Shown: positions 7,954 through 29,328, numbered from the stretch's first letter. The stretch: 64,000 nt of DNA from Deltaproteobacteria bacterium RIFCSPHIGHO2_01_FULL_43_49 (GCA_001798075.1 MGRG01000005.1:1148-65147), one strand, 5' to 3'. Notes: generated from the letters alone by a model not told the origin. Numbers and translations: made by a program.

Positions 7954-7954
7954 G

Positions 7955-8940: not shown

Positions 8941-8947
8941 CACAATC

Positions 8948-10532: not shown

Positions 10533-10578
10533 AGGCGCAGAGGCTACGACAAGGCCTACAGGGGGTCAAGAAATTTCC

Positions 10579-11280: not shown

Positions 11281-11284
11281 GTTT

Positions 11285-11827: not shown

Positions 11828-11829
11828 TT

Positions 11830-13507: not shown

Positions 13508-13518
13508 AAGGAGGTTTT

Positions 13519-13989: not shown

Positions 13990-14997
13990 GTTTCCTATCC
14001 GTACTTCCTTAAGACTTAAAGAGGCATAACGAATATAACCTAGTGCAATAGGACTGCTGAATTTCGGTGAAAAGCAGCTTGAAGTGACGGTCCCAATTTC
14101 TTGGCCATCTTCTGAAAAAATCTTTTCTCCCCTTTGTGGGATTTTATCACCTTCCAATTTCAATGATCTTAACTGTTTTCCAACATGTCCTCGGTGCTCC
14201 AACCTTGCAATCACCTCTTGACCCACATAACAACCTTTGTTGAAGCTCAGCGCCGTATAGAGATTAGCTTCCTGCGGAATCGTATTTTCATCCATATCAA
14301 CACCAAACAAGGGCGTGGCCGATTCGATGCGAAGGACTTCTTGGGTTTCTGGATCCAACTCTGGAACGTTCAGTTTTGATTTTAAACTGGGTAGTTGATC
14401 ACGAGCCACCCACATTTCAAACGCCGGCAAACCCCACATTGTTTTTCGAATCATCCAAATTTTAAACCCCTCCCACTCCACGAAATCGTAATCATAATTT
14501 GCACGGAGAGAAAGAGTCGGGTCCTGCCCCTCCGTGTTGCCATGGGGGCCCCTAACAAAACCCCATGGCCAACACTGCGGGTCACCCAACCCTTTCTCTC
14601 CATTCACTTTGGGTCCAATCACCGCACAAGTCCCCCATTTGTCTGTCTGATCAAACAATTCCACTTTTTGAAAAATGATATATTTTTTGAGCGTTTCTAA
14701 AAGAGTCAGTTTGAGTTTCGAGCTACAATCAATCCCAAAATAGTTTTCGCTGCGCCCGCCAGGTTGTAGTGGAGGGCAGTTATAACAAAATAAGTCGGCA
14801 ATCATTTTCCCTTTGGGTGTGCAAAGACAGGAGTAGCAACCTGTTTTGGGCTGGAGAGTCTGAATATTGTTGGTGAGAATGCCGTTTAAAAATTTTTTAG
14901 AATCGCCCCCCTTCACTTCAACCCAACAACGATCAGATAGATCCACAAGACCCATATTTTGTGTAACTTGATTGTATATTTCTGAATGCATGTTCAA
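13969..14997 (-). CDS. folate-binding YgfZ-like / aminomethyltransferase (GcvT) family protein carrying an in-frame repeat-derived insertion
   Basis: The C-terminal KGCYVGQE motif is typical of YgfZ/GcvT. The internal segment GLGDPQCWPWGFVRGPHGNTEGQDPTLS is encoded by a copy of repeat family 1. Confidence 0.65.
   Translation of the reverse strand: MNMHSEIYNQVTQNMGLVDLSDRCWVEVKGGDSKKFLNGILTNNIQTLQPKTGCYSCLCTPKGKMIADLFCYNCPPLQPGGRSENYFGIDCSSKLKLTLLETLKKYIIFQKVELFDQTDKWGTCAVIGPKVNGEKGLGDPQCWPWGFVRGPHGNTEGQDPTLSLRANYDYDFVEWEGFKIWMIRKTMWGLPAFEMWVARDQLPSLKSKLNVPELDPETQEVLRIESATPLFGVDMDENTIPQEANLYTALSFNKGCYVGQEVIARLEHRGHVGKQLRSLKLEGDKIPQRGEKIFSEDGQEIGTVTSSCFSPKFSSPIALGYIRYASLSLKEVRIGNSTANFL
14519..14596. 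repeat. family-1 palindromic element, degenerate copy B, inside a CDS
   Basis: gggtcctgcccctccgtgttgccatgggggcccctaacaaaaccccatggccaacac aligns to the reverse complement of the copy A/C cores. The terminal inverted repeats are degraded. Confidence 0.5.
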
Positions 14998-15004
14998 AAA
15001 AAAT

Positions 15005-15093
15005 TAAAAAGTGGCGGGTGGCCCGGAGTGTTTGTTGTGGGGTTTAGTTAGGGGCCCCCACAAAAACACGGAGGGACAGGACCCGTTACTTTT
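15005..15093. repeat. MITE-like palindromic element, family 1, copy C
   Basis: aaaaagtggcgggtggcccggagtgtttgttgtggggtttagttaggggcccccacaaaaacacggagggacaggacccgttacttttt is near-identical to copy A. Confidence 0.6.
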
Positions 15094-15148
15094 TACTCCA
15101 CTCATATCCTTGTTTTCTACACTGTTTTCCGTTAAATCGTCAACGTTC

Positions 15149-16315
15149 ATGAATCCCTATCTTTCTTTGCGTCTCTTCTATCTTTTTTATTTCGCTATCA
15201 TCGGTGTGTTGACTCCTTACTTTCCAGTTTTTCTAAAAGAACAGGGTTTAAGAGCATCACAAATTGGTCTTGTGATGGCGGCTTGGCCGGTTGCTAAACT
15301 GGTCGGCCCCATTTTTATGTCCAACCTTGCTGATCGTCTTAACAAACGGCTCTTCTTTATCCAAATGGGAGCCCTTTTTTGTGCCATAACCTATCTCGGT
15401 TTTTTTAAAGCCAGTGGTGTTTGGAGTTTTTTGTTGGTCATGTTTATTTTTTCCTTTTTTCGAATGAATATTTTGCCCTTGGGAGAAGCTATCGCCATGG
15501 AATATTGTGAGCATCATCAAAAAGAATATGGAAAGATCCGCTATTGGGGTTCTGTCGGTTTTATCGCCGCCTCATTTTTATTCGGCTGGTTGATTGATTA
15601 TTTTTCGATTCACATCGTTCTTTGGGGAATGTTGGTAATTGCCATCTTGCAATGGACATCCACTTTTTCTCTTCCCCCCACTCACAACCCCGCACAAAAA
15701 AAAGAGTACAGCTTGAAACCTTTTTGGAACAAAGCGATCATCGGATTCTTGATCAATAGCGTTTTTCGAGTCGTTTCGTTTGGGATCTACTACACTTTTT
15801 TTAGCATCTGGATGCACTCCCGCGGATATTCTTCCAGTGTGATTGGGTTTTGCTGGGCCATAGCGGTGCTAAGCGAGGTTTTTGTCATGATCTGGTTTAC
15901 CCAGCTGACAAAACGTTTTAGTTTGAAAGAAATCATGGGATGGAGTTTGGTCCTCACAGTTTTGCGCTGGTTAATTTTGGGATCAACCGCTTGGCTTCCC
16001 GCCATTTTGTTTTCGCAACTGTTACATGCCTTCACTTTTGGGGCTTATCATTTGGCGGCGATTTCTTATATGTATCAGCACACCCCTTCGCATTTACGCT
16101 CCACCGGTCAGGCTATCTATACCAGTGTTAGTTTTGGACTGGGGAGTGCCATTGGTTTTTGGGGACTCTCTTATTTAAAAGAATATTTTAGTTTTGAAAC
16201 GATGTTTTTGATTTGCGCAGGCATTGCGGCACTGGGTCTTCCTTTTACAAAATGGTTCAAAGAGCAGAAAGGGATGCCCTCCCCCATCGTCGGGATGGCT
16301 GCTGATCAGACTTAA
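15149..16315 (+). CDS. MFS transporter (HcaT/PPP-family-like)
   Basis: The product has twelve predicted hydrophobic helices. The N-terminus MNPYLSLRLFYLFYFAIIGVLTPYFPVFL is typical of this MFS subfamily. The ORF-track extension to 15011 is translation of repeat copy C. Confidence 0.7.
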   Translation: MNPYLSLRLFYLFYFAIIGVLTPYFPVFLKEQGLRASQIGLVMAAWPVAKLVGPIFMSNLADRLNKRLFFIQMGALFCAITYLGFFKASGVWSFLLVMFIFSFFRMNILPLGEAIAMEYCEHHQKEYGKIRYWGSVGFIAASFLFGWLIDYFSIHIVLWGMLVIAILQWTSTFSLPPTHNPAQKKEYSLKPFWNKAIIGFLINSVFRVVSFGIYYTFFSIWMHSRGYSSSVIGFCWAIAVLSEVFVMIWFTQLTKRFSLKEIMGWSLVLTVLRWLILGSTAWLPAILFSQLLHAFTFGAYHLAAISYMYQHTPSHLRSTGQAIYTSVSFGLGSAIGFWGLSYLKEYFSFETMFLICAGIAALGLPFTKWFKEQKGMPSPIVGMAADQT

Positions 16316-16342
16316 AAGGACCCGCAACTTTTTTATCATCTT

Positions 16343-16645
16343 TTAAAAAGTTCTTAAGCGCTCGACCGGTTTTCCTGTCATCAGGTGAGATTCTATAATT
16401 TCGTGGACATCTTCGAGAGTGACTTTGCCATACCAAACCCCTTCGGGATAAACCACCATCGAGACTCCCTTGGAACATTGATCAAGGCACCCCGCTTTGT
16501 TGACACGGATTTTTCCAGCCAAACCTCTCTTTTTGATTTCTTCCTTCATCGCATCCACAATGGCCTCCGAGCCTTTGGCCGCACAACATTCTTTGCCAGG
16601 ATCGCGTTTGTTGATGCAAATGAAGATATGTTTTTCAAATCGCAT
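16343..16645 (-). CDS. thioredoxin-like [2Fe-2S] ferredoxin
   Basis: The 100 aa product has the Cys pattern CINKR...CC...GC...C (IFICINKRDPGKECCAAKGSE...AGCLDQCSKG), typical of thioredoxin-like ferredoxins. Confidence 0.65.
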   Translation of the reverse strand: MRFEKHIFICINKRDPGKECCAAKGSEAIVDAMKEEIKKRGLAGKIRVNKAGCLDQCSKGVSMVVYPEGVWYGKVTLEDVHEIIESHLMTGKPVERLRTF

Positions 16646-16655
16646 GTAACATAGT

Positions 16656-16919
16656 TAGCATCAGCTTTAGCAGACGTCAACAAAGGGAAAATCACCAATA
16701 ACCAAAATCCAAGTTCCAGATAAATTCCAATTACCAAACACCGGTAACCAAACATTGTTTCATTAATTGGTTATTGGGCATTGGTTATTGTTTGGTGTTT
16801 GAAATTTGGTGATTGGTTATTTGGCTTCTTTTACTTTTAAGATTCAGTTTCTTTCATTATTGGTAATTGATTATTGGTGATTATTTGGTTATTGGTAGTT
16901 GGTGATTGGTAATTAAACG
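16656..16919. promoter_or_regulatory. divergent intergenic region filled with TTGGTAATTGG / GGTTATTGG direct and inverted repeats
   Basis: The repeats are directly visible: accaataaccaaa...ccaattaccaaacaccggtaaccaaa...ttggttattgggcattggttattgtttggtg...ttggtaattgattattggtgattatttggttattggtagttggtgattggtaatt. Confidence 0.4.
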
Positions 16920-18386
16920 ATGAGTCAATATATTTTATCGATCGATCAAGGCACTACAAGTACTCGAACCTTTCTTATCGATCACGATTTAAATGTCAAA
17001 GGAACTGCTCAGAAAGAATTCAAACAGCATTACCCAAAACCGGGTTGGGTAGAGCACAACCCTGAAGAAATTTGGGCCTCAACGCTTCAAACGATCAAAG
17101 AGGCATTGGCAAAGTCTAAAGTCGATCCAAAAAATATTGCAGGCATTGGCATTACCAATCAGCGCGAGACGACTATTCTATGGGACCGCAAAACGGGAAA
17201 GCCAGTTTATAACGCTATTGTCTGGCAAGATCGCCGCACATCGGAGCGTTGCCGCGAGTTAAAAGAAAAAAATCTGGAAGGGATAGTTCGTGAAAAAACA
17301 GGTTTGGTTTTGGATCCTTATTTTTCGGGGACCAAAATTGAGTGGCTCTTGAAAAATACTCAAGCAACGGGTGATTTAGCTTTTGGAACCATCGATACTT
17401 TTCTTCTCTGGCGCTTAACTGGAGGAAAAGTTCACGCAACGGATGCCACAAATGCCAGCCGCACACTCTTGATGAATCTCAAAACTTTAAACTGGGATCC
17501 GGAAATTTTGGAACTCTTTAAAATTTCTTCCAGTCTTTTGCCAAAAATTGATTCGTGCTCTGAAATTTATGGAACGACAAAAGGTCTTGAAGTACTGCCT
17601 GACGGAATCCCCATTGCCGGCATGGCAGGCGATCAGCAAGCAGCCTTGATTGGCCAGGCTTGTTTTGAAACAGGGGAGGCCAAGTGCACTTATGGAACCG
17701 GTTCTTTTATTTTGATGAACATTGGGAAAGAACCGAGGCCTTCTCATCATGGCTTGATCACGACACTGGCTTACAAAATAAAAGATAATGTGGCTTATGC
17801 TTTCGAGGGCTCTGCTTTTATTGCCGGCGCCGCTGTTCAATGGCTCAGAGATGGCCTAAAAATTATTCAAAAATCCTCGGATGTTGAAGAATTAGCTTCA
17901 CAGGTTCCAGATAGCGGTGGCGTTGTTTTTGTACCAGCATTGGTTGGACTTGGTGCGCCTCATTGGAAGCCAGAAGCAAGAGGAGTCATTACAGGAATTG
18001 ATCGTTCAACAACGGCCGCCCACATTGCCAGGGCAACTCTGGAAGGAATTGCTTTTTGCCAATCAGACATTTTACAAGCGATGACCAGCGATGTTGGAAA
18101 ATCACTCACTGTTTTAAAAGTGGATGGCGGAGCTTCAGCAAATAATTTATTGATGCAGTTTCAATCGGATATTTTGCAAGTTCCAATTTCCAGACCCAAG
18201 ATGTTAGAAACAACCGTTTTGGGAGCCGCATTTTTAGCAGGGCTGGCGGTTGGACTCTGGAAAGATTTGAATGATATTAAGAAAAGTTGGAAGGAAGATA
18301 AGAAATTTTCCCCGCAAATTTCAAAAGAAAAAGCTCAGGAAAAAATCAAGTTGTGGCAAATGGCTATTTCACACCTTCGGGATTAA
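16920..18386 (+). CDS. glpK: glycerol kinase
   Basis: MSQYILSIDQGTTSTR at the N-terminus, GTGSFILMN and FEGSAFIAGAAVQWLRD are canonical GlpK motifs, and the length is 488 aa. Confidence 0.95.
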   Translation: MSQYILSIDQGTTSTRTFLIDHDLNVKGTAQKEFKQHYPKPGWVEHNPEEIWASTLQTIKEALAKSKVDPKNIAGIGITNQRETTILWDRKTGKPVYNAIVWQDRRTSERCRELKEKNLEGIVREKTGLVLDPYFSGTKIEWLLKNTQATGDLAFGTIDTFLLWRLTGGKVHATDATNASRTLLMNLKTLNWDPEILELFKISSSLLPKIDSCSEIYGTTKGLEVLPDGIPIAGMAGDQQAALIGQACFETGEAKCTYGTGSFILMNIGKEPRPSHHGLITTLAYKIKDNVAYAFEGSAFIAGAAVQWLRDGLKIIQKSSDVEELASQVPDSGGVVFVPALVGLGAPHWKPEARGVITGIDRSTTAAHIARATLEGIAFCQSDILQAMTSDVGKSLTVLKVDGGASANNLLMQFQSDILQVPISRPKMLETTVLGAAFLAGLAVGLWKDLNDIKKSWKEDKKFSPQISKEKAQEKIKLWQMAISHLRD

Positions 18387-18933
18387 ACCTGGCTAGCAAA
18401 CGATAATAAAGCCATGTCAAAGCACGATTCCTTCTGGCAGCATTTTTTATTCTCGAGATGTCGTCTTCTCTAAAAAGATCTGGTTGGTTTGTATTAAGGG
18501 CTCGTAAAACAACTGCCGATTGACCACAGCCTTTTTCGGCCATGATTAACAAACGCTCAAAATCGCCTCGTTCAAGCGTTTGTCCTCTTTCAACTGCCCG
18601 CACCAATTGAAAACCAGCTTTTCTGTCGCCTTCTCCCATTTTTGAAATGATCTCTTTCACATCAATAGGTTCTCGCTTCACGGCATCTTTTGGGGCAATC
18701 TCTGTAGCCCTTCCTCCACGAACAATAGCAGAGATCTGGGCAAAGATTTCATTTTTACTCAGACCTGCAGGGTTCCTAGCAGTAAGTTCTTCCGTAAAAT
18801 GAACAACTCTTGAAGCATCGCCTAAAGTGAAAGGCCCTTCGGCTTCTTGCGCAGCAGCAATTCCTAAGAGGATGGCCTCTTCTAAAGGACTAACAGAGAC
18901 AGCGACTGAACCAGCTACAGTTAGTGGTGGCAT
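18364..18933 (-). CDS. hypothetical protein
   Basis: This is a 189 aa ORF with a GGAG Shine-Dalgarno that overlaps the glpK 3' end convergently. I recognise no family. Confidence 0.4.
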   Translation of the reverse strand: MPPLTVAGSVAVSVSPLEEAILLGIAAAQEAEGPFTLGDASRVVHFTEELTARNPAGLSKNEIFAQISAIVRGGRATEIAPKDAVKREPIDVKEIISKMGEGDRKAGFQLVRAVERGQTLERGDFERLLIMAEKGCGQSAVVLRALNTNQPDLFREDDISRIKNAARRNRALTWLYYRLLARFNPEGVK

Positions 18934-19256
18934 TTCAATTTCTCCTTTTCATTTTTTAGAAAGCGAGCCGCATAATCCATACATATTTTTTCAAGTCAAG
19001 GTGTTTTGCGTCACGCTTCTACTATAGTTATCCTTTTCGCGCTATCGCGCTTCAAGGACTTCGTCGGCCACCCGCTTCGCGGGTTCCCGGCCTCGGTCGT
19101 CGGCTATACTACATTTATCTGTAATTTTTGGGAAAAGTTGCTTGACAAAACCAACAAAATTCCAGATAAGAACAAAAGGCAAAAAAACTATACAATTCAT
19201 ATATTTGTAACGTTCACCATCCACGCTAAAGAAATGCAAAAAAGCAGTTCCGACGA

Positions 19257-20195
19257 ATGTCATTAGAAATCTTCATTAAGAAAAAGGGTGAAGAAATCGG
19301 CTTTGACAAAGTAGCTTTTGCCAGAGCCGATTCCTATTTAGAGCACAATGCCCTTCAAAATTGGCTGGCCCAGGGTTGCCATGGCGACATGAACTACATG
19401 GAGAAAAACAAAACTAAACGGATGAACCCCAAAGAAGTCATGCCGGAGGCCAAATCTGTCATCACTTGCGCGCTCAATTATAATACAGATTACCCTTACT
19501 CAATTGATTGCAAAAATCCCAACAAAGGCTGGATTGCAAGATACGCATGGGGAGAAGATTATCATATTATTATAGAGGAGATGCTCAAGTCTCTTCAGAA
19601 AGCTGTATTACAGTTGGAGCCAGGCACCAACTGTAAGATTTATGTCGATACAGGGCCAGTGATGGAGAGAGTTTTTGCAAAACATGCCGGTGTGGGATGG
19701 ATTGGGAAAAATACCTGTATCATTGATCCAAAAATTGGTTCGTGGCTTTTTTTAGGGATTATTTTGACAAATTTGGAACTCAAAGAAGACCCCGTCATTC
19801 CCGATCATTGCGGCAAATGCACCGTCTGCATTGATGCCTGTCCAACACAAGCAATTACACAGCCATATAAAATTGATGCGCGCCGTTGTATTTCTTATCT
19901 AACCATTGAACATAAGGGAGAAATCGAACCAGAGTTGGCTCGAAAAATGGGGAACAATATTTTTGGTTGCGACATCTGCCAAGATGTCTGCCCATGGAAC
20001 AAAAAAGCCCCTAAAACAGAATTGCCGGCTTTTCAACCACGAAATGGTTTTTTCAATCCAGACCTGAAAGAACTTCGCCAAAAAGTATTAGAAAATTATC
20101 CACAAGATTTTAAAAACTCCCCCTTGAAACGCCCTAAAAGAGACGGGCTGATAAGGAACATCGAAATCGCTTCTAACAATGCCCTGATGATATAA
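19257..20195 (+). CDS. queG: epoxyqueuosine reductase
   Basis: GWIGKNTCIIDPKIGSWLFLG, CGKCTVCIDACPT and GCDICQDVCPWN are QueG signature motifs (two 4Fe-4S ferredoxin motifs plus the cobalamin-binding region). Confidence 0.85.
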   Translation: MSLEIFIKKKGEEIGFDKVAFARADSYLEHNALQNWLAQGCHGDMNYMEKNKTKRMNPKEVMPEAKSVITCALNYNTDYPYSIDCKNPNKGWIARYAWGEDYHIIIEEMLKSLQKAVLQLEPGTNCKIYVDTGPVMERVFAKHAGVGWIGKNTCIIDPKIGSWLFLGIILTNLELKEDPVIPDHCGKCTVCIDACPTQAITQPYKIDARRCISYLTIEHKGEIEPELARKMGNNIFGCDICQDVCPWNKKAPKTELPAFQPRNGFFNPDLKELRQKVLENYPQDFKNSPLKRPKRDGLIRNIEIASNNALMI

Positions 20196-20238: not shown

Positions 20239-21192
20239 ATGCGGCGGGGAGAAGGAAAAGTTCTTGGCTTCATCGTTTTTGCGGTCTCCATTATTCTTTT
20301 CGCGCCGACCACTTTCGCCGCACCGAAATCCAAAACCAGAAAAACTGAAAAAAAAGAGCCCCTAGCCGCCTCCGCAATGGTTGGCGATTCGGTCTGCCAA
20401 AACTGCCACGAGGATCAACTTGCAAAATTTAATAAAACCTTGATGGCAAAATACCTCTATTCAAAAACAAAATCCGGAAAAGAAACCTTTGCTTGTGAAA
20501 CATGCCACGGCCCCGGCAGGGCCCATTCCGAAGCGGGCGGGGGTAGGGGAGTCGGTAATTTGATCACCTTTGGCAAAGGGGCTACCACGCCGGCGGAAAA
20601 GCAAAACGCCGTCTGCCTGCAATGCCACAGTGGAAATGACAGGTTTTTTTGGAATGGAAGCCCTCACGATTCCAAAGAGGTTGCCTGCACCAGCTGTCAC
20701 AAAGTGATGGAAAATGCCACCGAACGTTTCCAACTTTCCAAGTCCAGTGAGATTGAAACCTGCGGACAATGCCACCAGCAAAAAAGGGCCCAACGGATGC
20801 GCTATTCCCACATGCCCCTTCGGGAAAACAAGATGAAGTGCACCAGTTGCCACAGCCCTCACGGATCGGTATCGGATAAATTGCTAAAAGGAAATTCAAT
20901 CAATGAAATGTGCTACTCTTGCCACGCAGAAAAACGTGGGCCGTTCCTCTGGGAACATGCCCCCGTTGCCGAAAGTTGCACGAACTGCCACGACCCCCAT
21001 GGAAGCAACAATGAAAGAATGCTAACGCTGCCAAAGCCAAGGTTGTGCCAACAGTGCCACGTTGAAAGTGGACACCCAACCACCCCACAAAGATTAACTG
21101 CGACTCGTTACTTATCTGATCAAGCTTGCAACAACTGTCATTATGATGTGCACGGCAGCAATCACCCGTCGGGCAAGGCCTTTACGCGGTAG
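20239..21192 (+). CDS. periplasmic decahaem cytochrome c, MtrA/MtoA/DmsE-like
   Basis: The product has a signal peptide and ten CxxCH motifs in 317 aa (CQNCH, CETCH, CLQCH, CTSCH, CGQCH, CTSCH, CYSCH, CTNCH, CQQCH, CNNCH). Size and haem number match MtrA/MtoA. Confidence 0.8.
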   Translation: MRRGEGKVLGFIVFAVSIILFAPTTFAAPKSKTRKTEKKEPLAASAMVGDSVCQNCHEDQLAKFNKTLMAKYLYSKTKSGKETFACETCHGPGRAHSEAGGGRGVGNLITFGKGATTPAEKQNAVCLQCHSGNDRFFWNGSPHDSKEVACTSCHKVMENATERFQLSKSSEIETCGQCHQQKRAQRMRYSHMPLRENKMKCTSCHSPHGSVSDKLLKGNSINEMCYSCHAEKRGPFLWEHAPVAESCTNCHDPHGSNNERMLTLPKPRLCQQCHVESGHPTTPQRLTATRYLSDQACNNCHYDVHGSNHPSGKAFTR

Positions 21193-21200
21193 GAGGATCT

Positions 21201-23363
21201 ATGCAACGTGGGAGAATACTATTTTCAACTCTTGCAGGTTGCATTGCCCTTCTACACATTGCCGCTAATAGTTACGCCGAGACCAAATTGTTTGGCTTTA
21301 AAACAGATGGTGAACTCTCGGCAGGGGGCCGAGCTTATTTGGAAGAACTCCCCTATCAATTTGAAAAGGCGAAGCTCGAAGAATACCGCGATCTGAGACA
21401 GCAATTCTTTTTGGACAAATTCCGCCTCGGCCTGGAAAGCGAAGACAAGCCCACTCTTTTCGAAATTGGGGGATCACTGGCAGGCCAACGTGATCAAAAC
21501 TTTTTCTTAAAAACCACCCAACTTGGAACCTATAACTTCGAGTTTGAATGGGACCAAATGCCGCATCTCTATTCAACGAGCGGTCAAATGTTGGGAACAA
21601 CAATAAGTCCCGGCGTTTATACCTTGGCAAGCCCTCGACCAACCGGGGCTCAATTTAACGCGGCGCCCTTCATCGATCGAATCGCCGCTCAATGGAATAC
21701 AGCACGCTTTCAAATTTCTTACCAGCCTAGTGATGAGTGGGATCTTTCATGGAAATATAATTGGATCATGAAGGGAGGGGAGCGCCCGCTCGGTATGGCA
21801 TTTGGAACTCCCGGAAGCAATTTTCGCGAAGTTTTGGAACCGGTGGAACATGATATCCATGATTTCCAGTTCACATCCCGATATGCAAAAGAAAAATACC
21901 AGCTTCAGTTCAACTACAACCTTTCTCTTTTCGAAAACAGCCTGAATTCGGTCACTTCAGACAACCCCGCTTCGGCAACCGATGGGGCCTTTGCTGCCAC
22001 AGCAACCGGTGGCTCCAGCACTCCAAGCAGGGGGCGAACAGCGCTGGCACCGGACAATGTGGCTCACACCTGGAGCCTTGCGGGTAGCATTCAACTACCT
22101 CACAAAACACGTATCAATAGTTCCTTTTCCTACAGCTGGCGGATTCAAAATCAGATTTTTATCCCTCATACCATCAACCCAAACATCCCTACGGCAAATT
22201 TGACGCTGCCCCAATCCGCACTGGAAGGAGAGGTGGGTGTCTTGTCTTATAATTTTAATCTGACCAGTAAACCCCTTGATAAGCTGACGCTGACCACAAA
22301 ATACCGTTTTTATCGCTTCGACGATGACAGCAGCACAATTATTTTTCCTGCATATGTGGAGGATGATCGAGTATTAGTAAACGGCAATCTCACCGCAGAG
22401 AGATATTCCTTCGATAAACACAAGGCTTCATTCGACGCCCGTTGGCAATTGTTAAAGCCGCTCGCATTGACAGCGGGAATGGATTGGGAACGCTGGGATC
22501 GTGGCTCTCATCGTGAAGCCCGAGAGACCGATGAGTATACGCCGAGGATATCTCTAGATTTAAAACCGAGTCATCGAGTACTTTTCAGGGCCACCTACTC
22601 TCCTTCCATTAAAGTAATTGATAATTATATTCCCCAATCTTCTCTGCAACATGTCTCCTTGCGCAAATTTGACGAAACCTCAAGGCAACGTCATAAAGTC
22701 GATTTTTTCACCCAACTTACTCCCTGGGATAATTTATCAACCAGCATCAATTTCAATTACAAAAACGACGATTATCAAGATTCCACATTTGGATTGCAAG
22801 ATTCTGAGAGCTGGTCTGTCGGAACAGATCTCTCTTGGAGTCCGACTGACCGACTGACATTGTTTGGAAACTACACAAGAGAAGAATATTTTTCCAAACA
22901 AGCCTCCCGCTCCAGAGCAACGGGAATTTTGGAAAACACTGCCTATGATTGGGTTGCAAAAACGAAAGATATTATTGATACCGCCAGAGTGGGATTTGAT
23001 ATCGCATTGATACGCAACAAACTAAATTTGAGTGCCAACTGGGACATTTCCCGTCAATCAACCAAGATGGATGCCTTCAACCCACAAACTCCAACGGGCG
23101 GCACAGCCGCTCAAAACACTACGGCAACGGCCAATGACTTTCCTGCCATCAAAAGCACGCTCAACCGTTTTGAATCCTATCTAAAGTATCGGTTTGGCAA
23201 GGCGTGGACCGCCAAGTTTGCCTATCTCCTTGAAGACTTTGACAGAGACGATTTTCGCACCGACGGCCTGGTACCAACAACAGGAAGTGATATCGTCCTG
23301 GGCAGCGCCCCTCTCGATTACACAGCCCACATCGTTGTCGCCACATTGGGCTATCAATTCTGA
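21201..23363 (+). CDS. outer-membrane beta-barrel protein, MtrB/MtoB/PioB-like porin partner
   Basis: The 720 aa product has a signal peptide, alternating amphipathic Tyr/Ser/Thr/Asn-rich segments, and a C-terminal ...VATLGYQF ending in Phe, the usual OMP terminus. It lies immediately downstream of the decahaem gene. Confidence 0.6.
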   Translation: MQRGRILFSTLAGCIALLHIAANSYAETKLFGFKTDGELSAGGRAYLEELPYQFEKAKLEEYRDLRQQFFLDKFRLGLESEDKPTLFEIGGSLAGQRDQNFFLKTTQLGTYNFEFEWDQMPHLYSTSGQMLGTTISPGVYTLASPRPTGAQFNAAPFIDRIAAQWNTARFQISYQPSDEWDLSWKYNWIMKGGERPLGMAFGTPGSNFREVLEPVEHDIHDFQFTSRYAKEKYQLQFNYNLSLFENSLNSVTSDNPASATDGAFAATATGGSSTPSRGRTALAPDNVAHTWSLAGSIQLPHKTRINSSFSYSWRIQNQIFIPHTINPNIPTANLTLPQSALEGEVGVLSYNFNLTSKPLDKLTLTTKYRFYRFDDDSSTIIFPAYVEDDRVLVNGNLTAERYSFDKHKASFDARWQLLKPLALTAGMDWERWDRGSHREARETDEYTPRISLDLKPSHRVLFRATYSPSIKVIDNYIPQSSLQHVSLRKFDETSRQRHKVDFFTQLTPWDNLSTSINFNYKNDDYQDSTFGLQDSESWSVGTDLSWSPTDRLTLFGNYTREEYFSKQASRSRATGILENTAYDWVAKTKDIIDTARVGFDIALIRNKLNLSANWDISRQSTKMDAFNPQTPTGGTAAQNTTATANDFPAIKSTLNRFESYLKYRFGKAWTAKFAYLLEDFDRDDFRTDGLVPTTGSDIVLGSAPLDYTAHIVVATLGYQF

Positions 23364-23471: not shown

Positions 23472-23957
23472 ATGGATACTGGCGAAAAGAAAAAAATGTC
23501 GGTTCACTACTTCCGCAAGGCTTATGAGGCCCAAACTCACGGAGATTTGGGGGAGGCGATCGAGCTTTATCAAAAATCAATCGACACCTTTCCCACACCA
23601 GAGGCGCTAACCTTTTTAGGCTGGGCCCTTTCCTTTTTGGGAAAATATGATGAAGCGATCTCTTTTTGCAAAAAGGCAATCGACCTAGATCCCGATTTTG
23701 GCAATCCCTACAATGATATCGGTGCTTATTTTATTGAATTGGGCAAATTCGATGATGCCATCCCCTTTTTGGAAAAGGCCACCAAAGCCAGCCGCTATGA
23801 CACCTATTGTTTTCCTCATTACAATCTGGGTCGCGTTTGGGAAAAAAAGGGGATGATTATTAAGGCAAAGCAAGCCTTCCAAAGGGCCCTAGAGGAAAAT
23901 CCGGAATATATGTTGGCTGTCGAGTCGCTAGAACGCTTGAAATACGCCCTCAACTAA
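23472..23957 (+). CDS. TPR repeat protein
   Basis: The product contains three to four TPR-like 34-residue units (e.g. [46 protein letters not shown]). Confidence 0.7.
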
Positions 23958-23986: not shown

Positions 23987-24325
23987 ATGGAAAACGCAGA
24001 ACTAGTCAGTTTAAGTCCAAAAGCGGTGGAAAAAATTAAAGAATATTCGGAGAAAATGCCGGAGGCTAAAGGGAAACAATTTCGTGTCTATGTTCAAGGT
24101 GGCGGCTGCTCCGGATTTTCTTACGGCTTTATGTTCGACGATCAAAGAGACGGCGACAATATCATTCAAGCCAGTGGCGTTACCTGTTTGATCGATTCTC
24201 AAAGTTTGATGCTCATTAAAGGGGCGACGGTTGACTTCGTCGAAGGGATGACGGGTGCTGGCTTTGCGGTTGAAAACCCCAACGCCAAAACCTCTTGCGG
24301 CTGCGGCTCTTCGTTTAGTGTTTAG
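23987..24325 (+). CDS. erpA: A-type iron-sulfur cluster carrier (ErpA/IscA/HesB family)
   Basis: [13 protein letters not shown] together with a C-terminal CGCGSSFSV gives the three conserved Cys of A-type carriers. Confidence 0.85.
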
Positions 24326-24342: not shown

Positions 24343-24780
24343 ATGCAACGTGGTTTTATTGTCTTGCTTCTTATATGTGTTGCGGGTTGCAGTAGCTATT
24401 TTACCCCCTATCACTCTGAAACAGCCCCCTCTCTCGAGAGTGGGATTTTGCTTGCGGGAACAATCATCATTGATTCAAAACTTCATAAAAAAATCCAACC
24501 AAGCGACACCCTTTATATCATTGCTAAAAAGGGAGATGGAATGCCTCCTTTGGCAGTCAAAAAAATGGCCGTCGGGGCATTTCCCCTAAAATTTGAGTTG
24601 GGGTCTCAGGATATCATGATGCACGGGGCCTCTTTAGAAGGGGATGTTATTCTAGTTGCCCGCATTGACCAGGACGGGATGGCTGGCCCTCCACAAAAGG
24701 GAGATCTAGAGGGGAGAACAGCAAAGCCGATTTCTATCGGTGACCAATCTATTGAAATAAAAATCGATAAAAGTTTTTAA
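24343..24780 (+). CDS. hypothetical lipoprotein
   Basis: The product has a signal peptide with a lipobox, LLICVAGCSS. Confidence 0.5.
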   Translation: MQRGFIVLLLICVAGCSSYFTPYHSETAPSLESGILLAGTIIIDSKLHKKIQPSDTLYIIAKKGDGMPPLAVKKMAVGAFPLKFELGSQDIMMHGASLEGDVILVARIDQDGMAGPPQKGDLEGRTAKPISIGDQSIEIKIDKSF

Positions 24781-26126
24781 TTCCCCAATTCATACACTAT
24801 CCACTCCGAAAAGGTTTCCGGACCTCGATGTTTTGGGAGATCTTCATCCCAAAGGGCAAATGAGGCATAACCCAATTGGGGAATGGGGGCATCCTCATTT
24901 TCTGCCGGTCGGAGCGTCCTTCTAAAAATCACATGCCAACTCCCCTGATAATATACCCCTTTGCCGGTCACATTTTGTCTCATCAAATCTTGAGGTTTCA
25001 ACTGTCCGACACCACCTGCATTGAAGTCTTTGAAGGAACCCGCCTTCCATTCCCAAATGTTTACTTTTTTGGAGGCACTTCCCATGCCAAGATAAGGTAA
25101 CTCGATAGGATTGGTTATTGTATCCATTGGGAGCTGAATCGCGGCGGCGTCACTTTGATTAGGATCCACATTCATCCGATCATCTTCCCACTGGATATAG
25201 AACGCAATCTCTTTGTCATTATGCAGGGCTTTTATGGTAAGCCATTCCGTCGCTTCGGGTTCATGCCATAGATGTTTTAGAAAAACGGGGATGCTGGAAG
25301 TTTTTTCCCATGCCTCATCTTCATAATCTAAAGGAATTTCTCCGTTTATTTTGGTAACGGGGAGCAAATTCCTTTTTGGACTGGAAGGATCATATCCCTC
25401 CGGGAGGGGCCTTTGAATAGATTTTAGGTAATGGACGAGTGACCACATCTGTTCTTTTGAAAAGGTGTGTTCATAGCCAGGCATCGGCGTCCCGGGAATT
25501 CCTATCATGAGGGTGCGGTAAATATCCCTGGTGGTATTTCCCCATTTCAAAGGGCCACGAGTCAAATCCCTTGGCGCAATCCTGTCTCCCCAAACATCTT
25601 TTAAAACAATAGCTCCCGGTCCGTCTCCTTTTCCTTGAAGACCGTGGCAAGCGACACAACCGCTTTTTTCGTAAAGTTCCCGTCCCGACTGAATCGATTC
25701 GGGCGTCTTCTTGGGCTCTTCAGGGGTGTCCACAGAAGGACCCGCTTTCTCATTGGCCAATCTTGGATTGAAGGATTTTAAGTATGACAAAATTGATCGC
25801 CAATCCTCCATGCTCAGCAAGTCCCAGCCGGGCATTGATGTGCCGGGGATCCCAAGTTTCATGGTCTGCAACAAATCGAGATCGGCAGGAACGGCCCCCC
25901 TTGTCCTGCGGTATTTAAAGATGCCTGAAGTAAAATCCCTCGGCTTTGGCCATAAAAATTCGGCGATAGGCCCCTTGCCGTCTCCTTTGGAACCGTGGCA
26001 TGAAGCACAATGAACTTCATAAAGATGTTTTCCCTGAGTTGTTGAAACCTCTCGGCTTGTGTCTCTGCAAGCTCTTTGCTGGCAAGAGAGTGATAGAGCA
26101 AGCAAAATAAAAAAAACTCTTTTCAC
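24777..26126 (-). CDS. dihaem cytochrome c with a C-terminal ~230 aa domain of unclear family
   Basis: Two class-I cytochrome c motifs are present, CASCHGSKGDG and CVACHGLQGKGDG, each followed by the Met-containing GIPGTxMPG motif. The gene is the last in the Rieske/cytochrome b operon. Confidence 0.7.
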   Translation of the reverse strand: MKRVFFILLALSLSCQQRACRDTSREVSTTQGKHLYEVHCASCHGSKGDGKGPIAEFLWPKPRDFTSGIFKYRRTRGAVPADLDLLQTMKLGIPGTSMPGWDLLSMEDWRSILSYLKSFNPRLANEKAGPSVDTPEEPKKTPESIQSGRELYEKSGCVACHGLQGKGDGPGAIVLKDVWGDRIAPRDLTRGPLKWGNTTRDIYRTLMIGIPGTPMPGYEHTFSKEQMWSLVHYLKSIQRPLPEGYDPSSPKRNLLPVTKINGEIPLDYEDEAWEKTSSIPVFLKHLWHEPEATEWLTIKALHNDKEIAFYIQWEDDRMNVDPNQSDAAAIQLPMDTITNPIELPYLGMGSASKKVNIWEWKAGSFKDFNAGGVGQLKPQDLMRQNVTGKGVYYQGSWHVIFRRTLRPAENEDAPIPQLGYASFALWDEDLPKHRGPETFSEWIVYELGN

Positions 26127-27736
26127 TATTTTCCTCGTTTCTGGGCTGCAAGGTAACTGGCCAAGTTTTCAATATCTTGAGTTTCAAGGATTGATCCAAA
26201 TTCCGGCATGGCGGCATCCGGGTTTAACAATTGAGGATTTTGAATATAGGCCCGAATCCATTCGGCTACCCTGAAGTTTCCGATGCCACTCAAGTCGGGA
26301 CCCACGTCGCCACCCTCTCCTTTCAACCGATGACAGGTTTGACAATTCTCCTGGTATATTTTTGCAAGTCTTGCCGTGAAAATACCACTCCCCCCAACAT
26401 CCCTCAAGTATGCAATGAGGGCGTAAATCTCTTCATTCAAGAGATTCAACTCCGGCATGGCGGAACCTGGAGTCGCTTCACGAGGCTTACGAAAATGAAC
26501 CTCCAACCATTCATCCGATCTGGAAGAAACGGTCAACGATAAATCGGGCCCAACAGTCCCCCCTTCACCCCGAATCTGGTGACAATAAGAGCAATGCAAA
26601 TCGGCATAAATTTTCTTCCCGTGAAGCACCATCGGATTTTTTTCGATTTGGGGATTCACCAAGGGGGATTTCCATCCCTGATAAGAGAGTAAAAGGATAT
26701 AACCTACCGCAAGAAGACCGGCTGTCATCCAAACGGGTCTTGCAAAGGGGTGTCTTTTTGTCCCTCGATCCAAAAAAGGAAGAAGCAGCAAAAAAAGGAT
26801 CAGGATAGTGGGCAAGACTACCGCGGCGAGATACTCCAAGTTTCCTGGAAAAAGTTTGAGCATTTGAAACAAAAAGAGAAAATACCACTCGGGCCTGGGG
26901 TTATAAGAGGCATCGGTCGGATCTGCGGGATCTTCCAAGTCGGCCCCAAAATAAATGCTTAGGAAAAAAAGAATTCCAATGACTGTCGTAATCATCACTA
27001 AATCTTTAAAAATACTGTGGGGATAAAACGATTTCCCTTTCGCCTTCAGACTTTCGTAATCGGGCGGTTCAGAGCCCGGAGGATGGGGGGGAGCAGAAAT
27101 CCCATGATAAACCACCAAGAAAAGATGGGTACCGATGAGAAGGGCCATAAAGGTTGGCAAAACAAGGACATGAAGGGCATAAAACCTTGTGAGTGTCATC
27201 GCCCCTAATTCCTCACCACCTTTGAATATCTTAGCGATCCAGAGACCCAAAAACGGTGCCTGCTTGGAGATGTTGATCCCGACGGCCGTGGCCCAATAAG
27301 CCTTTTGATCCCAAGGAAGAAGGTATCCTGTAAACCCCAAACCGAAGGCAGCTAGAAGCAAAAAGATACCCACAATCCAAGTTAGCTCCCTTGGAGATTT
27401 GTGCGAACCCATGCAGAAGGTTCGAAGCAGGTGCAAAACCAAAAGGATGATCATTGCGGAGGCGCCCCATTTATGGAGCCCGCGGATCAACCCCCCTAAT
27501 GGAACCTCTGTCATGATGTAGCGAATCGATTCGTAGGCATGATCCGGAGAGGGCGAATAATTCATTCCCAAAAACATTCCGGTCAGGACTTGAAGCAAAA
27601 AGACGGCCAAGGTAGCCGACCCCAATGTGTAAGCCCAAGCCCAACGACCCGGGTTTGGAATTTTTCGATCCAAAAGTGTTTGTTTAACAGAAGACCAACC
27701 CAAACGATTACGAAGCCATTTGAAGGGGGATTCCAT
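26126..27736 (-). CDS. cytochrome b of a bc-type complex fused to a C-terminal dihaem cytochrome c
   Basis: The N-terminal region (GSATLAVFLLQVLTGMFLGMNY...RGLHKWGASAMIILLVLHL...PEWYFLFLFQMLK) matches cytochrome b/b6 plus subunit IV helices. The C-terminus carries CSYCH and CQTCH with the GxGGxVGPDL pattern. Confidence 0.85.
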   Translation of the reverse strand: MESPFKWLRNRLGWSSVKQTLLDRKIPNPGRWAWAYTLGSATLAVFLLQVLTGMFLGMNYSPSPDHAYESIRYIMTEVPLGGLIRGLHKWGASAMIILLVLHLLRTFCMGSHKSPRELTWIVGIFLLLAAFGLGFTGYLLPWDQKAYWATAVGINISKQAPFLGLWIAKIFKGGEELGAMTLTRFYALHVLVLPTFMALLIGTHLFLVVYHGISAPPHPPGSEPPDYESLKAKGKSFYPHSIFKDLVMITTVIGILFFLSIYFGADLEDPADPTDASYNPRPEWYFLFLFQMLKLFPGNLEYLAAVVLPTILILFLLLLPFLDRGTKRHPFARPVWMTAGLLAVGYILLLSYQGWKSPLVNPQIEKNPMVLHGKKIYADLHCSYCHQIRGEGGTVGPDLSLTVSSRSDEWLEVHFRKPREATPGSAMPELNLLNEEIYALIAYLRDVGGSGIFTARLAKIYQENCQTCHRLKGEGGDVGPDLSGIGNFRVAEWIRAYIQNPQLLNPDAAMPEFGSILETQDIENLASYLAAQKRGK

Positions 27737-27739
27737 TTT

Positions 27740-28219
27740 CTAAACCTTTTCTTTTAGTGTGGGGAGCATCCAGAGTTTTCCCGCCTCCACCTTAACATCA
27801 TAACGATCCAAGGGTCTCGGTGGTGGACCAGAGATAACTTGTCCATCAACGTCAAACACAGCAGCATGACAGGGACATAAAAACTTCTCTTTTGCCTCAT
27901 CCCATCGATAAGGACAACCCAAATGGGTGCAGCGAGGATCAAACACCGTGAACTCTTTCCCATCCCTTGTGAGAACCCAAGCAGTGCGTTTTTCCTCAAC
28001 CGTCATCCATCCATCTTTTCTTCTTTGGATGAATTCAATTTTTGTCGGTTTACCGACAGGGATTTTTTTGGTCTCCCCAAGCAAGACCCAATCTTCTATG
28101 TGTTTTTTCCATGCCGGCGACAAAAAGTAGGTTGCAATGGGCGCCAAAAGGGAAATCCCGACCACAGAACCCAAGCCATAAATTGCGAGTTCCAAAAATT
28201 TTCGGCGATCCATTGTCAT
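27740..28219 (-). CDS. Rieske [2Fe-2S] iron-sulfur protein (Tat-exported)
   Basis: The product has a twin-arginine motif RRKFLE and the Rieske boxes CTHLGCP and CPCHAAVF. Confidence 0.85.
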   Translation of the reverse strand: MTMDRRKFLELAIYGLGSVVGISLLAPIATYFLSPAWKKHIEDWVLLGETKKIPVGKPTKIEFIQRRKDGWMTVEEKRTAWVLTRDGKEFTVFDPRCTHLGCPYRWDEAKEKFLCPCHAAVFDVDGQVISGPPPRPLDRYDVKVEAGKLWMLPTLKEKV

Positions 28220-28947
28220 GGTTTACGCAAAGATTCTCTGGCGTTCTTCAATTCTTTGAGCAATTTTTCGGACTCGCTCGACACAAAGACAACATCAAAA
28301 GAGTGCCATTTCCTTTGAATTTCTTGGTAGCGCCTCAAAAATTCTTCAGGGGTCTTCCCTTTGCGCAAGGCCAACTCTTTTTGATAAGAGCCCAAAGATT
28401 CCTTGATGGCACGGATGAGACTCAAGGCTTTGGCGGCCTGTGTCGGTTTTCCATGGCACAAAGAACAGGTCTTATCCAAATCGGAATAGGATAAAATGGT
28501 TGTGGCCATGGCTCCGTGGCAAGTAAGACAGTTGGGCCCCTTGCCCGTGCGCAAAAGCATTTTGTAATGAGCACTCGTTTCAAATTCTTTTAACTCTTCC
28601 GTGTGGCAAGTCCCACAAGTTGCCGGAACATTTTGGAAATAGATTTTCGAATTCTTATCTTTGGAAGACAAGACTCCTTGGTGGGCCTTGACAGGATCTG
28701 GTGTCTCTGCATTTCCCCCGTGACATGCTTCACAACCGACCCCTGATTTAGCGTGGATCGATTTTTCCCAATCCTTATAATTGTGCCCCAGGTACTTGGA
28801 GCCTTGCTGCTTGCGATGGCAATCAACACAAGAGTCATTCTTCGAAATCGCAGTTTGTGAAAAAAAGAAGAGAGAAAAACACAAACAAACTAAAAGGAAG
28901 GGTTTTCTCATTATTTTACAAATAATATATGATGCTTTTTTATTCAA
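28216..28947 (-). CDS. pentahaem cytochrome c (membrane-anchored or secreted)
   Basis: Five CxxCH motifs are present (CVDCH, CEACH, CGTCH, CLTCH, CSLCH) behind an N-terminal hydrophobic segment. The stop overlaps the Rieske start. Confidence 0.75.
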   Translation of the reverse strand: MNKKASYIICKIMRKPFLLVCLCFSLFFFSQTAISKNDSCVDCHRKQQGSKYLGHNYKDWEKSIHAKSGVGCEACHGGNAETPDPVKAHQGVLSSKDKNSKIYFQNVPATCGTCHTEELKEFETSAHYKMLLRTGKGPNCLTCHGAMATTILSYSDLDKTCSLCHGKPTQAAKALSLIRAIKESLGSYQKELALRKGKTPEEFLRRYQEIQRKWHSFDVVFVSSESEKLLKELKNARESLRKP

Positions 28948-29043: not shown

Positions 29044-29328
29044 ATGAAAACATTTCTTTCTTTTCTAGTAGTGGGGTTGCTCGGCGCTACCGCTCAAGCA
29101 GCCGGTGCAGATGGCGCAGCCCTTTTCAAGGCCAAGATGTGTGGGGCCTGCCACGCCGAAGGGAAAAAGGGGGGCGATCTCAAAAATTCCACATTGGATA
29201 AGGCGACCATGGTCCAGTTCCTGAAGGATCCCAAGGCCATGAGGCCAAAGACGACCAAGACCCCCGTAAAGGCAACGGATGAAGAATTGAGCGCCTTGGC
29301 CGATTATGTTATCAGTTTACGGAAATAA
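29044..29328 (+). CDS. small monohaem cytochrome c (paralog of 38011-38289)
   Basis: The product has a signal peptide, a single CGACH motif and a C-terminal amphipathic helix, 94 aa in total. A GGAGG Shine-Dalgarno lies upstream. Confidence 0.8.
   Translation: MKTFLSFLVVGLLGATAQAAGADGAALFKAKMCGACHAEGKKGGDLKNSTLDKATMVQFLKDPKAMRPKTTKTPVKATDEELSALADYVISLRK

Follow-up and report, generated by a model that had tools for sequence, protein, structure and literature searches.

Porin-cytochrome conduits of the MtrAB family, pairs of a decahaem c-type cytochrome and an outer-membrane beta-barrel, are the best-understood Gram-negative route for electron exchange with minerals, and their link to the inner membrane varies by lineage. 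A pair of this family is encoded at positions 20239-23363 of a 64,000-nucleotide (nt) stretch of DNA, referred to below as the window, from Deltaproteobacteria bacterium RIFCSPHIGHO2_01_FULL_43_49 (GCA_001798075.1 MGRG01000005.1:1148-65147), a metagenome-assembled genome (MAG) from the Rifle aquifer. The locus is best read as an MtrC-less conduit that is linked to nearby quinone-reactive modules and leans towards electron uptake, a reading given a rough probability of 0.6.

Several described systems frame this reading. The MtoAB systems of Sideroxydans lithotrophicus ES-1, Gallionella capsiferriformans ES-2 and Dechloromonas aromatica RCB comprise an adjacent, co-oriented decahaem cytochrome and barrel without MtrC; nearby genes encode a CbcL/MtoC-like fusion, a monohaem cytochrome c and a cytochrome of the NapC/NirT class, and the genome also has a Cyc2-type porin-cytochrome. 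The window contains candidate counterparts of all of these. Published work describes CbcL-like mtoC clustered with mtoAB and documents that the inner-membrane partner in mto clusters is encoded by mtoC or cymA, differing among lineages (Zhong & Shi, PMC6295460; He et al., PMC5566968). PioABC of Rhodopseudomonas palustris TIE-1 likewise includes a pair of the MtrAB family that lacks MtrC and has been implicated in taking up electrons, and published networks place Rokubacteria homologues, clade-mates of the window cytochrome, next to PioAB (PMC10654088). The cytochrome-rich rus/petI locus of Acidithiobacillus ferrooxidans resembles the window in combining a Cyc2-like outer-membrane protein with a bc-type complex; this likeness is one of functional analogy only, the petI bc1 complex being the precedent for a bc complex that works in reverse during iron oxidation (PMC10654088; PMC5566968). 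Finally, Shewanella MtrCAB (6R2Q) provides the structures with which both members of the window pair were compared.

The cytochrome-barrel pair

The pair consists of two genes, hereafter mtrA and mtrB:

20239-21192, + strand: MtrA/MtoA-like periplasmic decahaem c-type cytochrome of 317 amino acids (aa), with ten CxxCH motifs and matches to TIGR03508 and 6r2q_A
21201-23363, + strand: predicted MtrB/MtoB/PioB-like outer-membrane beta-barrel of 720 aa, with matches to PF11854 and TIGR03509 and a model that superposes on MtrB

The 317 aa protein is a member of the MtrA/MtoA/DmsE family. Both genes lie on the + strand at the positions given in the original prediction, and, as claimed there, this one encodes a secreted protein of MtrA/MtoA size with exactly ten CxxCH motifs (residues 53, 86, 126, 150, 175, 201, 225, 247, 270 and 297), and its N-terminus has a hydrophobic segment at residues 8-26, followed by TFA-AP, and no lipobox cysteine. 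It scores 263.6 bits (E 1.8e-78, profile positions 1-258 of 258) against TIGR03508, the model for DmsE/MtrA-family decahaem cytochromes, above the curated cut-off of 192.2. Its sequence match in the PDB is 6r2q_A (E 2.8e-71), which bears the erroneous PDB-table label 'cystathionine beta-synthase' but is Shewanella baltica MtrA; the two proteins are 45.7% identical over 265 aligned residues, with ten of ten haem motifs in register. PioA has a long N-terminal extension that the window protein lacks. In several Methylomirabilota-type MtrA homologues (P0012, P0015, P0032 and P0116) a lipobox-like cysteine ends the signal peptide (e.g., LALSSC, LLSSC, LTGC), and these, unlike the window protein, may be lipoproteins.

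The 720 aa protein is assigned to the MtrB/PioB barrel family by profile and by model. It reaches 331.9 bits against PF11854 (MtrB_PioB; profile positions 6-635 of 635, cut-off 23) and 270.3 bits against TIGR03509 (cut-off 240.05), and matches 6r2q_B (MtrB) in the PDB at E 6.8e-17. The N-terminus is signal-peptide-like (MQRGRILFSTLAGCIALLHIAANSYA-ET) and the C-terminus reads ...LGYQF, which bears out the earlier description of an outer-membrane-protein-like product of MtrB size with a signal peptide and a terminal Phe. An AlphaFold model built with 57 homologues (mean pLDDT 89.8, pTM 0.82) is an all-beta structure in which DSSP assigns about 26-28 long strands, the number that had been anticipated. 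In Foldseek its best PDB fold is MtrB 6r2q_B (E 4e-38, TM 0.81/0.89, root-mean-square deviation 3.4 Å), at only 19% identity to Shewanella MtrB in the structural alignment, whereas TonB-dependent receptors score far lower (TM about 0.35-0.45), which speaks against a receptor or non-barrel fold. The core identification holds because the larger protein is modelled as an MtrB-like barrel and the smaller aligns best with MtrA rather than with a decahaem family that lacks porin partners; family thresholds, motif register and barrel superposition all agree on a trans-outer-membrane conduit of the MtrAB/MtoAB type. Moreover, mtrB begins 8 nt past the TAG stop of mtrA, and 6 nt separate its ATG from a GGAGGA ribosome-binding site, a spacing that suggests translational coupling.

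The predicted architecture marks the pair as a genuine porin-cytochrome conduit of the MtrAB family without MtrC, in the style of MtoAB and PioAB. No MtrC/OmcA-type surface decahaem lipoprotein adjoins it, the flanking genes being queG and a TPR gene, and the 720 aa protein contains no CXXC anywhere, its sole cysteine (residue 14) lying inside the signal peptide. An N-terminal CXXC in MtrB is a feature of metal-reducing Gammaproteobacteria. A Shewanella-type MtrCAB module was rejected on the absence of both an adjacent MtrC and a barrel CXXC; the locus also differs from that system in lacking the CymA-FccA/CctA context. Lipoprotein cytochromes further along the window (40165-44332) have no MtrC/MtrF domain match and are similar to no PDB chain.

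The pair is 100% identical to OGQ05798.1 (decahaem cytochrome) and OGQ05799.1 from Deltaproteobacteria bacterium RIFCSPLOWO2_12_FULL_44_12 and sibling Rifle-aquifer MAGs, in all of which the proteins are labelled 'hypothetical protein'. What is new is the occurrence of the pair in this little-studied, uncultured Rifle lineage; the family itself is known and is named correctly by current hidden Markov models. It is also very large: of 8,000 candidates scored, 7,960 had E < 1e-20, and a contig scan of GTDB species genomes with an MtrA alignment located relatives in more than 587 stretches, while the same kind of scan with a single MtrB protein as query returned none. In a rough neighbour-joining tree of MtrA, calculated without support values, the window protein nests in a clade of Rokubacteria, Methylomirabilota and Gemmatimonadaceae together with its sister from MAG GCA_030648035 (contig JAUSII010000035, loci L001/L005; MtrA 66% and MtrB 55% identical), the closest other genome. 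MtoA of the iron oxidiser Ferrigenium straubiae KS, to which the window MtrA is 41% identical, takes another place in the tree, as do Thiocapsa KS1 and alphaproteobacterial homologues, all without linkage to Rieske/cytochrome b genes.

Quinone-linked modules near the pair

The original prediction had noted the absence of the usual CymA or MtoD and had pointed to a convergently encoded bc-type complex as a possible inner-membrane partner. The absence applies to the immediate neighbours of the pair, but not to the wider window, where candidates for all three partner classes (monohaem cytochrome c, CbcL/MtoC-like fusion and NapC/NirT-type 13-haem cytochrome) lie 5.7-12 kb downstream in a separate operon, beyond the bc-type one:

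24777-26126, - strand: dihaem cytochrome c with an EB_dh domain (haem-b, dimethyl sulfoxide (DMSO)-reductase type II gamma-like), last gene of the bc-type operon; two PF00034 matches and PF09459
26126-27736, - strand: cytochrome b (b6/subunit IV-like, PEWY) with a C-terminal dihaem cytochrome c; PF00033 at 167 bits, PF00032 and two Cytochrom_C matches, with CxxCH at residues 382 and 465
27740-28219, - strand: Rieske [2Fe-2S] subunit with a twin-arginine leader (MDRRKFL), predicted to be Tat-exported; PF00355 at 49 bits
28216-28947, - strand: membrane-anchored pentahaem c-type cytochrome, first gene of the bc-type operon; five CxxCH, an N-terminal hydrophobic segment, and Cytochrom_NNT and Cytochrome_C7 matches
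29044-29328, + strand: monohaem class-I cytochrome c of 94 aa, first gene of the CbcL-like operon and candidate periplasmic shuttle; PF13442 and PF00034
29352-32072, + strand: CbcL/MtoC/MtrH-like inner-membrane fusion of 906 aa; 19 CxxCH followed by a multi-span haem-b domain, transmembrane from residue 594
32059-33834, + strand: second CbcL-like fusion, of 591 aa; ten CxxCH and a cytochrome b561-type membrane domain, PF01292 at 49.5 bits (cut-off 30.1)
33798-35552, + strand: NapC/NirT (CymA-class) membrane-anchored 13-haem cytochrome of 584 aa; PF03264 at 42.9 bits, and TIGR03153 (NrfH) at 70 bits, below its cut-off

The bc-type operon (24777-28947) is unusual in that a pentahaem membrane cytochrome stands in place of cytochrome c1. 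Its last product also matches TIGR03477 at 85.7 bits, below the cut-off, and the NxrC/EbdC-like haem-b (EB_dh) subunit has a weak match (49 bits) to Leptospirillum cytochrome 579; EB_dh proteins likewise flank mtrAB in two of the loci surveyed below, L002 and L004. The CbcL-like operon runs divergently from it across a gap of 96 nt. In that operon the 906 aa fusion matches Ni_hydr_CYTB and formate-DH-gamma, both below cut-off, and its spacing of haems and transmembrane segments is like that of long CbcL/MtoC/MtrH homologues such as the 907 aa Elusimicrobia protein OGS41263.1 (Table S2, PMC6295460). The three consecutive haem-rich membrane proteins at 29352-35552 are encoded by overlapping genes in one operon; the 13-haem protein has two additional CX3-4CH motifs, and its NapC/NirT part is divided into two genes in L003 and L004. 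The monohaem cytochrome at the head of the operon is a paralogue of one encoded at 38011-38370 (- strand), with which it shares the motif LFKAKMCGACHA.GKKGGDLK, and each of the two heads an inner-membrane module, the second being a tetrahaem-iron-sulfur (FeS)-NrfD operon at 35560-37990. In a PDB sequence search (E up to 1) the 94 aa protein matched chains of cytochromes c551, c552 and c6, none of them close and none named as MtoD.

The locus differs from the described systems in several respects. Compared with MtoAB, the window MtrA belongs to another clade in the rough tree, and the partner genes lie outside the operon of the pair. Furthermore, the MtoC-like protein has 19 haems rather than 9 and is accompanied by a second copy with 10, the monohaem cytochrome has no MtoD similarity detectable by the names listed in the PDB search, and the nearest respiratory neighbour is a multihaem Rieske/cytochrome b operon. 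In contrast to PioABC, no gene for a high-potential iron-sulfur protein (PioC) was seen among the open reading frames (ORFs) examined, and the window offers no phototrophy context. In contrast to A. ferrooxidans, the window lacks rusticyanin, the organism is from a neutral-pH aquifer, MtrAB is encoded in addition to the Cyc2-like protein, and the bc complex has multihaem subunits and an EB_dh domain.

Conserved neighbourhoods of mtrAB

The neighbourhood of mtrAB was surveyed in 80 species-representative (GTDB) loci with MtrA relatives and in three metagenome loci, by tblastn of the locus DNA with the window proteins and additional Rieske and cytochrome b queries; neighbours were counted as linked within 10 kb of mtrA, and 38 of the 80 loci had full flanks, with at least 9 kb on either side of mtrA. 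In 68 of the 80 loci mtrB adjoins mtrA, and most of the remaining loci end with the contig. Rieske and cytochrome b genes are linked in 13 of the 80 (9 of the 38 with full flanks), on the strand of mtrA in 12 of the 13. The hosts belong to Methylomirabilota/Rokubacteria, Gemmatimonadaceae (Gemmatimonadota), Aminicenantales, Acidobacteriota and Elusimicrobia, and the linked loci are concentrated in the clade of the window MtrA in the rough tree. CbcL-like modules are found near mtrAB in nine loci, NapC/NirT-type in nine and NrfD-type in five, any such module being present in 22 of 80. In the metagenome loci L003 and L004 a Rieske/cytochrome b arrangement lies directly upstream of mtrAB, whereas in L002 (1-4856) and L086 (8915-14788) the place by mtrAB is taken by an operon like alternative complex III (ACIII), with a multihaem cytochrome, a molybdopterin-family subunit, FeS, NrfD and cytochrome c and with no Rieske/cytochrome b. 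A complex-III-type enzyme beside mtrAB may therefore be a recurring theme.

The other membrane modules of the window recur in the same manner. NapC/NirT-type genes directly upstream of mtrAB encode proteins 55% (L004) and 47% (L003) identical to the window 13-haem protein, and homologues of the second CbcL-like fusion lie next to mtrAB in L023 and L024 (41-42%). The whole set is carried by the most telling of the loci, L041, Elusimicrobia bacterium RIFCSPLOWO2_02_FULL_39_32 from the same aquifer, in which all genes lie on one strand and are tightly packed in the order mtrA (45% identical to the window), mtrB (30%), Cyc2-like gene (41%), monohaem cytochrome c, CbcL-like fusion (47%), NapC/NirT 13-haem cytochrome (52%), pentahaem cytochrome (37%), Rieske protein (51%) and cytochrome b (53-56%). 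Judged by these gene contents, the window is a dispersed form of the L041 set.

A Cyc2-like porin-cytochrome

One further gene of the L041 set is present in the window, 32 kb from the pair:

55412-56659, + strand: divergent Cyc2-like fused monohaem cytochrome-porin of 415 aa, with a signal peptide, one CxxCH and a 16-strand model

Cyc2 is a verified iron oxidase family, for which Keffer et al. (PMC8406198) require a length of at least 365 aa, a signal peptide and one CXXCH only, preceded by PXFAR[Q/K][T/Y] and followed four residues downstream by PXL, together with a 16-strand OprP-like porin. In the window protein the single CxxCH occupies residues 38-42, just past the predicted signal peptide cleavage site, within the N-terminal sequence AVSQWARKY-KMN-CQSCH-TAF-PRL. 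The upstream motif thus reads SQWARKY (P replaced by S, F by W), followed by a three-residue spacer, and PRL lies exactly four residues past the His. The AlphaFold model (pLDDT 86.2) has 16 long strands, and in fold it comes closest in the PDB to 16-strand porins, among them OprP 2o4v, which is reported as the Cyc2 template (PMC8406198). The homologue in L041 reads SQFARKY; a strict application of the published filter would drop both proteins, as the Pro is missing.

The family is associated with mtrAB in relatives of the window. A 424 aa homologue (61% identical) is encoded immediately upstream of mtrA in L001/L005, and the L041 homologue immediately downstream of mtrB. In L087 a Cyc2-like gene is followed by a cytochrome c that is 46% identical to the 94 aa cytochrome and by a tetrahaem-FeS-NrfD operon like that at 35560-37990. 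No Pfam or NCBIfam model matched the family, every member of which is labelled hypothetical, and which is also represented in MAGs assigned by label to Elusimicrobia, Chlamydiae, Zixibacteria, Nitrospinae and Aminicenantes. Taken together, the association of mtrAB with Rieske/cytochrome b or ACIII-like modules and with the Cyc2-like family constitutes a comparative-genomic lead rather than a demonstrated mechanism; no description of the link to multihaem Rieske/cytochrome b or ACIII-like modules and to the divergent Cyc2-like clade was found in a limited literature search.

Proposed electron path and its direction

In the path that would best fit these genes, the 317 aa cytochrome would be exported by Sec and matured by the Ccm system encoded in the window, and its decahaem chain would then sit as a haem wire in the lumen of the roughly 26-strand barrel. 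Electrons would cross the outer membrane between periplasmic cytochromes and outside material such as iron minerals, dissolved Fe(II) and possibly manganese or humic substances. The small monohaem cytochromes c would most likely act as the shuttle to or from the quinone-reactive inner-membrane modules next door, namely the multihaem Rieske/cytochrome b complex, the two CbcL/MtoC-like fusions and the NapC/NirT-type 13-haem protein. Were the flow inward, the bc-type complex would spend energy to move electrons 'uphill' into the quinone pool, the role that has been proposed for Acidithiobacillus petI.

We lean towards such an inward flow, i.e., electron uptake by processes such as Fe(II) or mineral oxidation, because neither MtrC nor a CXXC is present, because a Cyc2-type gene adjoins mtrAB in two relatives, and because the route proposed for the inner membrane of iron oxidisers runs through bc-type or ACIII-type complexes (PMC5566968; PMC10654088). 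Nearby genes for FeoB, VIT1 and a DtxR-FeoA fusion were also counted for this direction. In L001 (13111-19245) the genes behind mtrAB form a clade-II-type nitrous oxide reductase cluster (nos_propeller, NosD, NosL, ABC transporter and cytochrome c) together with NnrS, a possible candidate for the electron sink of an uptake pathway.

A number of observations weigh against uptake through a bc-linked conduit. Direction is not readable from sequence and is the standard open question for MtoAB-like pairs: MtoA and PioA form no function-specific clade (PMC8805035), and FeGenie treats MtrC-less pairs as ambiguous, Magnetospirillum AMB-1 reducing iron with mtrAB alone (PMC7005843). The window MtrA is equally near to Shewanella MtrA and to the MtoA of F. 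straubiae, and the Cyc2-like protein belongs to a divergent clade, including members from Chlamydiae and Elusimicrobia MAGs, in which the function is putative. No terminal oxidase or carbon-fixation genes are visible within the window, and a Geobacter-style cluster of surface lipoprotein cytochromes (40165-46477) would suit outward flow. As regards the inner membrane, the bc operon lies on the opposite strand with three backbone-type genes between it and mtrB, the closest relatives (L001/L005 and L085) encode no bc complex within 10 kb of mtrAB, and the complex might function as complex III in the general respiration of the organism.

The serious rival to uptake is the reverse direction, in which the CbcL-like, NapC/NirT-like or bc modules would oxidise quinol and MtrAB would deliver the electrons to Fe(III), Mn(IV) oxides or humics, whether with no MtrC at all or by way of the surface lipoprotein cytochromes at 40-44 kb. 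MtrAB conduits are reversible and their phylogeny does not part the two directions (PMC8805035), the MtrC-less mtrAB of AMB-1 belongs to an iron reducer (PMC7005843), and in Geobacter and Shewanella quinol is oxidised by CbcL and CymA-class proteins (PMC6295460). Moreover, genes for a 7-haem protein and a putative porin accompany those for two lipoprotein cytochromes (11-12 CxxCH) in the window, and iron reduction is a common process in low-oxygen aquifer sediment, the source of the MAG. The want of an MtrC/OmcA homologue and of a barrel CXXC argues against this direction, however, as does the Cyc2-like gene beside mtrAB in relatives; on general bioenergetic grounds, the output of a Q-cycle bc complex has a fairly high potential and would suit only high-potential acceptors such as Mn(IV). 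Overall, outward reduction appears unlikely, though it has to be reckoned with.

Equally tentative is the view that the bc-type complex is a mere neighbour serving as general complex III, and that the true partners are the CbcL/MtoC-like and NapC/NirT-type proteins alone, as in Gallionella ES-2 and Dechloromonas. Such a view accords with the published pattern of mtoC/CbcL-like and CymA-class partners, with the strand of the bc operon and with the nearest relatives, and 25 of the 38 full-flank loci have neither Rieske/cytochrome b nor a CbcL-like module near mtrAB. Against it, the linkage in 13 of 80 loci, nearly always on the same strand and spread over Methylomirabilota, Gemmatimonadota, Acidobacteriota, Aminicenantes and Elusimicrobia, is far above chance, which for a bc operon near mtrAB, with one to three such operons per genome, amounts to about 1% by our own rough estimate; in addition, the linked bc operons bear multihaem subunits rather than plain cytochrome c1. 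The partnership suggested in the original prediction therefore gains a conserved neighbourhood in other phyla and stops short of proof.

The uptake reading can be extended, in a form that we consider doubtful but worth stating, to an 'extracellular electron uptake supermodule' that would be shared horizontally and would run from MtrAB and a Cyc2-like protein via monohaem cytochrome c to a multihaem Rieske/cytochrome b or ACIII-like complex with CbcL/NapC-type quinone reductases. It would span at least six, mostly uncultured, lineages: the Rifle lineage of the window, Methylomirabilota/Rokubacteria, Gemmatimonadota, Acidobacteriota, Aminicenantes and Elusimicrobia. If this were true, an outer-membrane conduit would be wired directly into a complex-III-type enzyme, whose probable role would be reverse electron flow in lithotrophic Fe(II) or Mn(II) oxidation.

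More generally, the locus extends the known carriers of the conduit to an uncultured Rifle-aquifer lineage whose key genes are deposited as hypothetical, and points to a recurrent link of MtrC-less conduits to complex-III-type enzymes across soil and groundwater phyla (Methylomirabilota, Gemmatimonadota and Acidobacteriota). Should the link be functional, it would supply, for abundant uncultured bacteria, an inner-membrane route that can be tested in the subsurface cycling of iron and possibly of manganese, as well as a better genomic marker set than mtoAB alone.

The queG backbone and the placement of the cassette

Downstream of mtrB, the order TPR, ErpA, lipoprotein and then the convergent bc-type operon agrees with the earlier description, as judged by ORFs and profile matches:

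23472-23957, + strand: TPR protein without a signal peptide, encoded within 108 nt of mtrB
23987-24325, + strand: ErpA; NF010147 at 122.5 bits (cut-off 117)
24343-24780, + strand: lipoprotein of 145 aa with a CycH Ig-like domain

The window and L001/L005 share a backbone of GCV_T, 2Fe-2S ferredoxin, glycerol kinase, a small ORF, QueG, TPR and ErpA at 58-85% identity. In L001/L005, the TPR (76% identical) and ErpA (85%) genes directly follow queG (L001 7503-8373), and mtrAB lies further downstream, past the 424 aa Cyc2-like gene. In L085 (MtrB 56% identical) mtrAB stands alone between an RNase-H-like gene and queF/queC, and in L086 (MtrB 50%) it lies beside a two-component system and the ACIII-like operon; no TPR or ErpA homologue was found near mtrAB in these or in any other surveyed locus. 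The gene orders indicate that mtrAB behaves as a two-gene cassette at varying genome positions, whereas TPR and ErpA belong to the queG backbone and are not conduit partners, since they directly trail queG in L001/L005 while mtrAB sits elsewhere.

That the TPR protein, ErpA and the lipoprotein should be dedicated accessory factors of the conduit, forming a new five-gene operon with the pair, is accordingly very improbable, and the candidate was rejected on the synteny with queG in a relative. Their genes are on the strand of mtrB and follow it within 108 nt, with no terminator-like site predicted in between, and the CycH Ig-like domain of the lipoprotein is tied to cytochrome c maturation. On the other side, the homologues do not accompany mtrAB in other loci, the TPR protein has no signal peptide, and a promoter-like site precedes the TPR gene; promoter and terminator counts in the scan of the window were at the level of shuffled sequence. 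The 145 aa lipoprotein, which has no counterpart in the 20 kb L001 locus, may have a link to cytochrome c maturation.

Least probable of all is a pair of the DmsEF type feeding an extracellular molybdoenzyme (DMSO or iodate reductase) instead of minerals, which is suggested by the name 'DmsE family' of the best NCBIfam model and by molybdopterin oxidoreductases 5-9 kb from mtrAB in L002 and L086, but which, together with a DmsEFAB-type module as such, is set aside because no molybdopterin-binding protein (Molybdopterin/Molydop_binding) occurs among any ORFs of at least 100 aa in the window, TIGR03508 also takes in MtrA, MtoA and PioA, and the molybdoproteins of L002 and L086 lie in multihaem-FeS-NrfD-cytochrome c arrays typical of alternative complex III and not of DmsAB.

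Base composition varies along the window, the cytochrome-rich part at 20001-50000 having about 46-48% GC as against 38-44% at 1-20000, and third-position GC being 54% in mtrA as against 42.5% in the neighbouring queG. This may be a weak hint at foreign origin, or may equally reflect an effect of codon or amino-acid composition.

Other features of the window

Towards the start of the window, five consecutive ORFs of 298-501 aa (2239-7953) have no Pfam match at E up to 1e-5. The region at 40165-46477 (+ strand) is a possible second, Geobacter-style porin-cytochrome cluster, for no member of which a PDB or NCBIfam match was found. Its lipoprotein cytochromes comprise 834 aa (12 CxxCH, with Big_5 Ig-like domains) and 531 aa (11 CxxCH), both with several CX3-4CH motifs, and it also encodes a 7-haem protein, a 2-haem protein and a 427 aa putative outer-membrane protein without a family match (44339-45622). 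A relationship of this last ORF to MtrB or to the Cyc2-like protein was rejected, the proteins being unrelated by hhalign profile comparison.

Around the cytochrome island lie haem and iron housekeeping genes (39743-40120, 46474-54942, 56697-57740 and 60554-61318) for CcmH, the DtxR-FeoA fusion, FeoB, a CcmG-like thioredoxin, CcmF/E/C/B/A, HemA (glutamyl-tRNA reductase) and a VIT1-family transporter. A Crp/Fnr regulator is encoded at 61327-62085.

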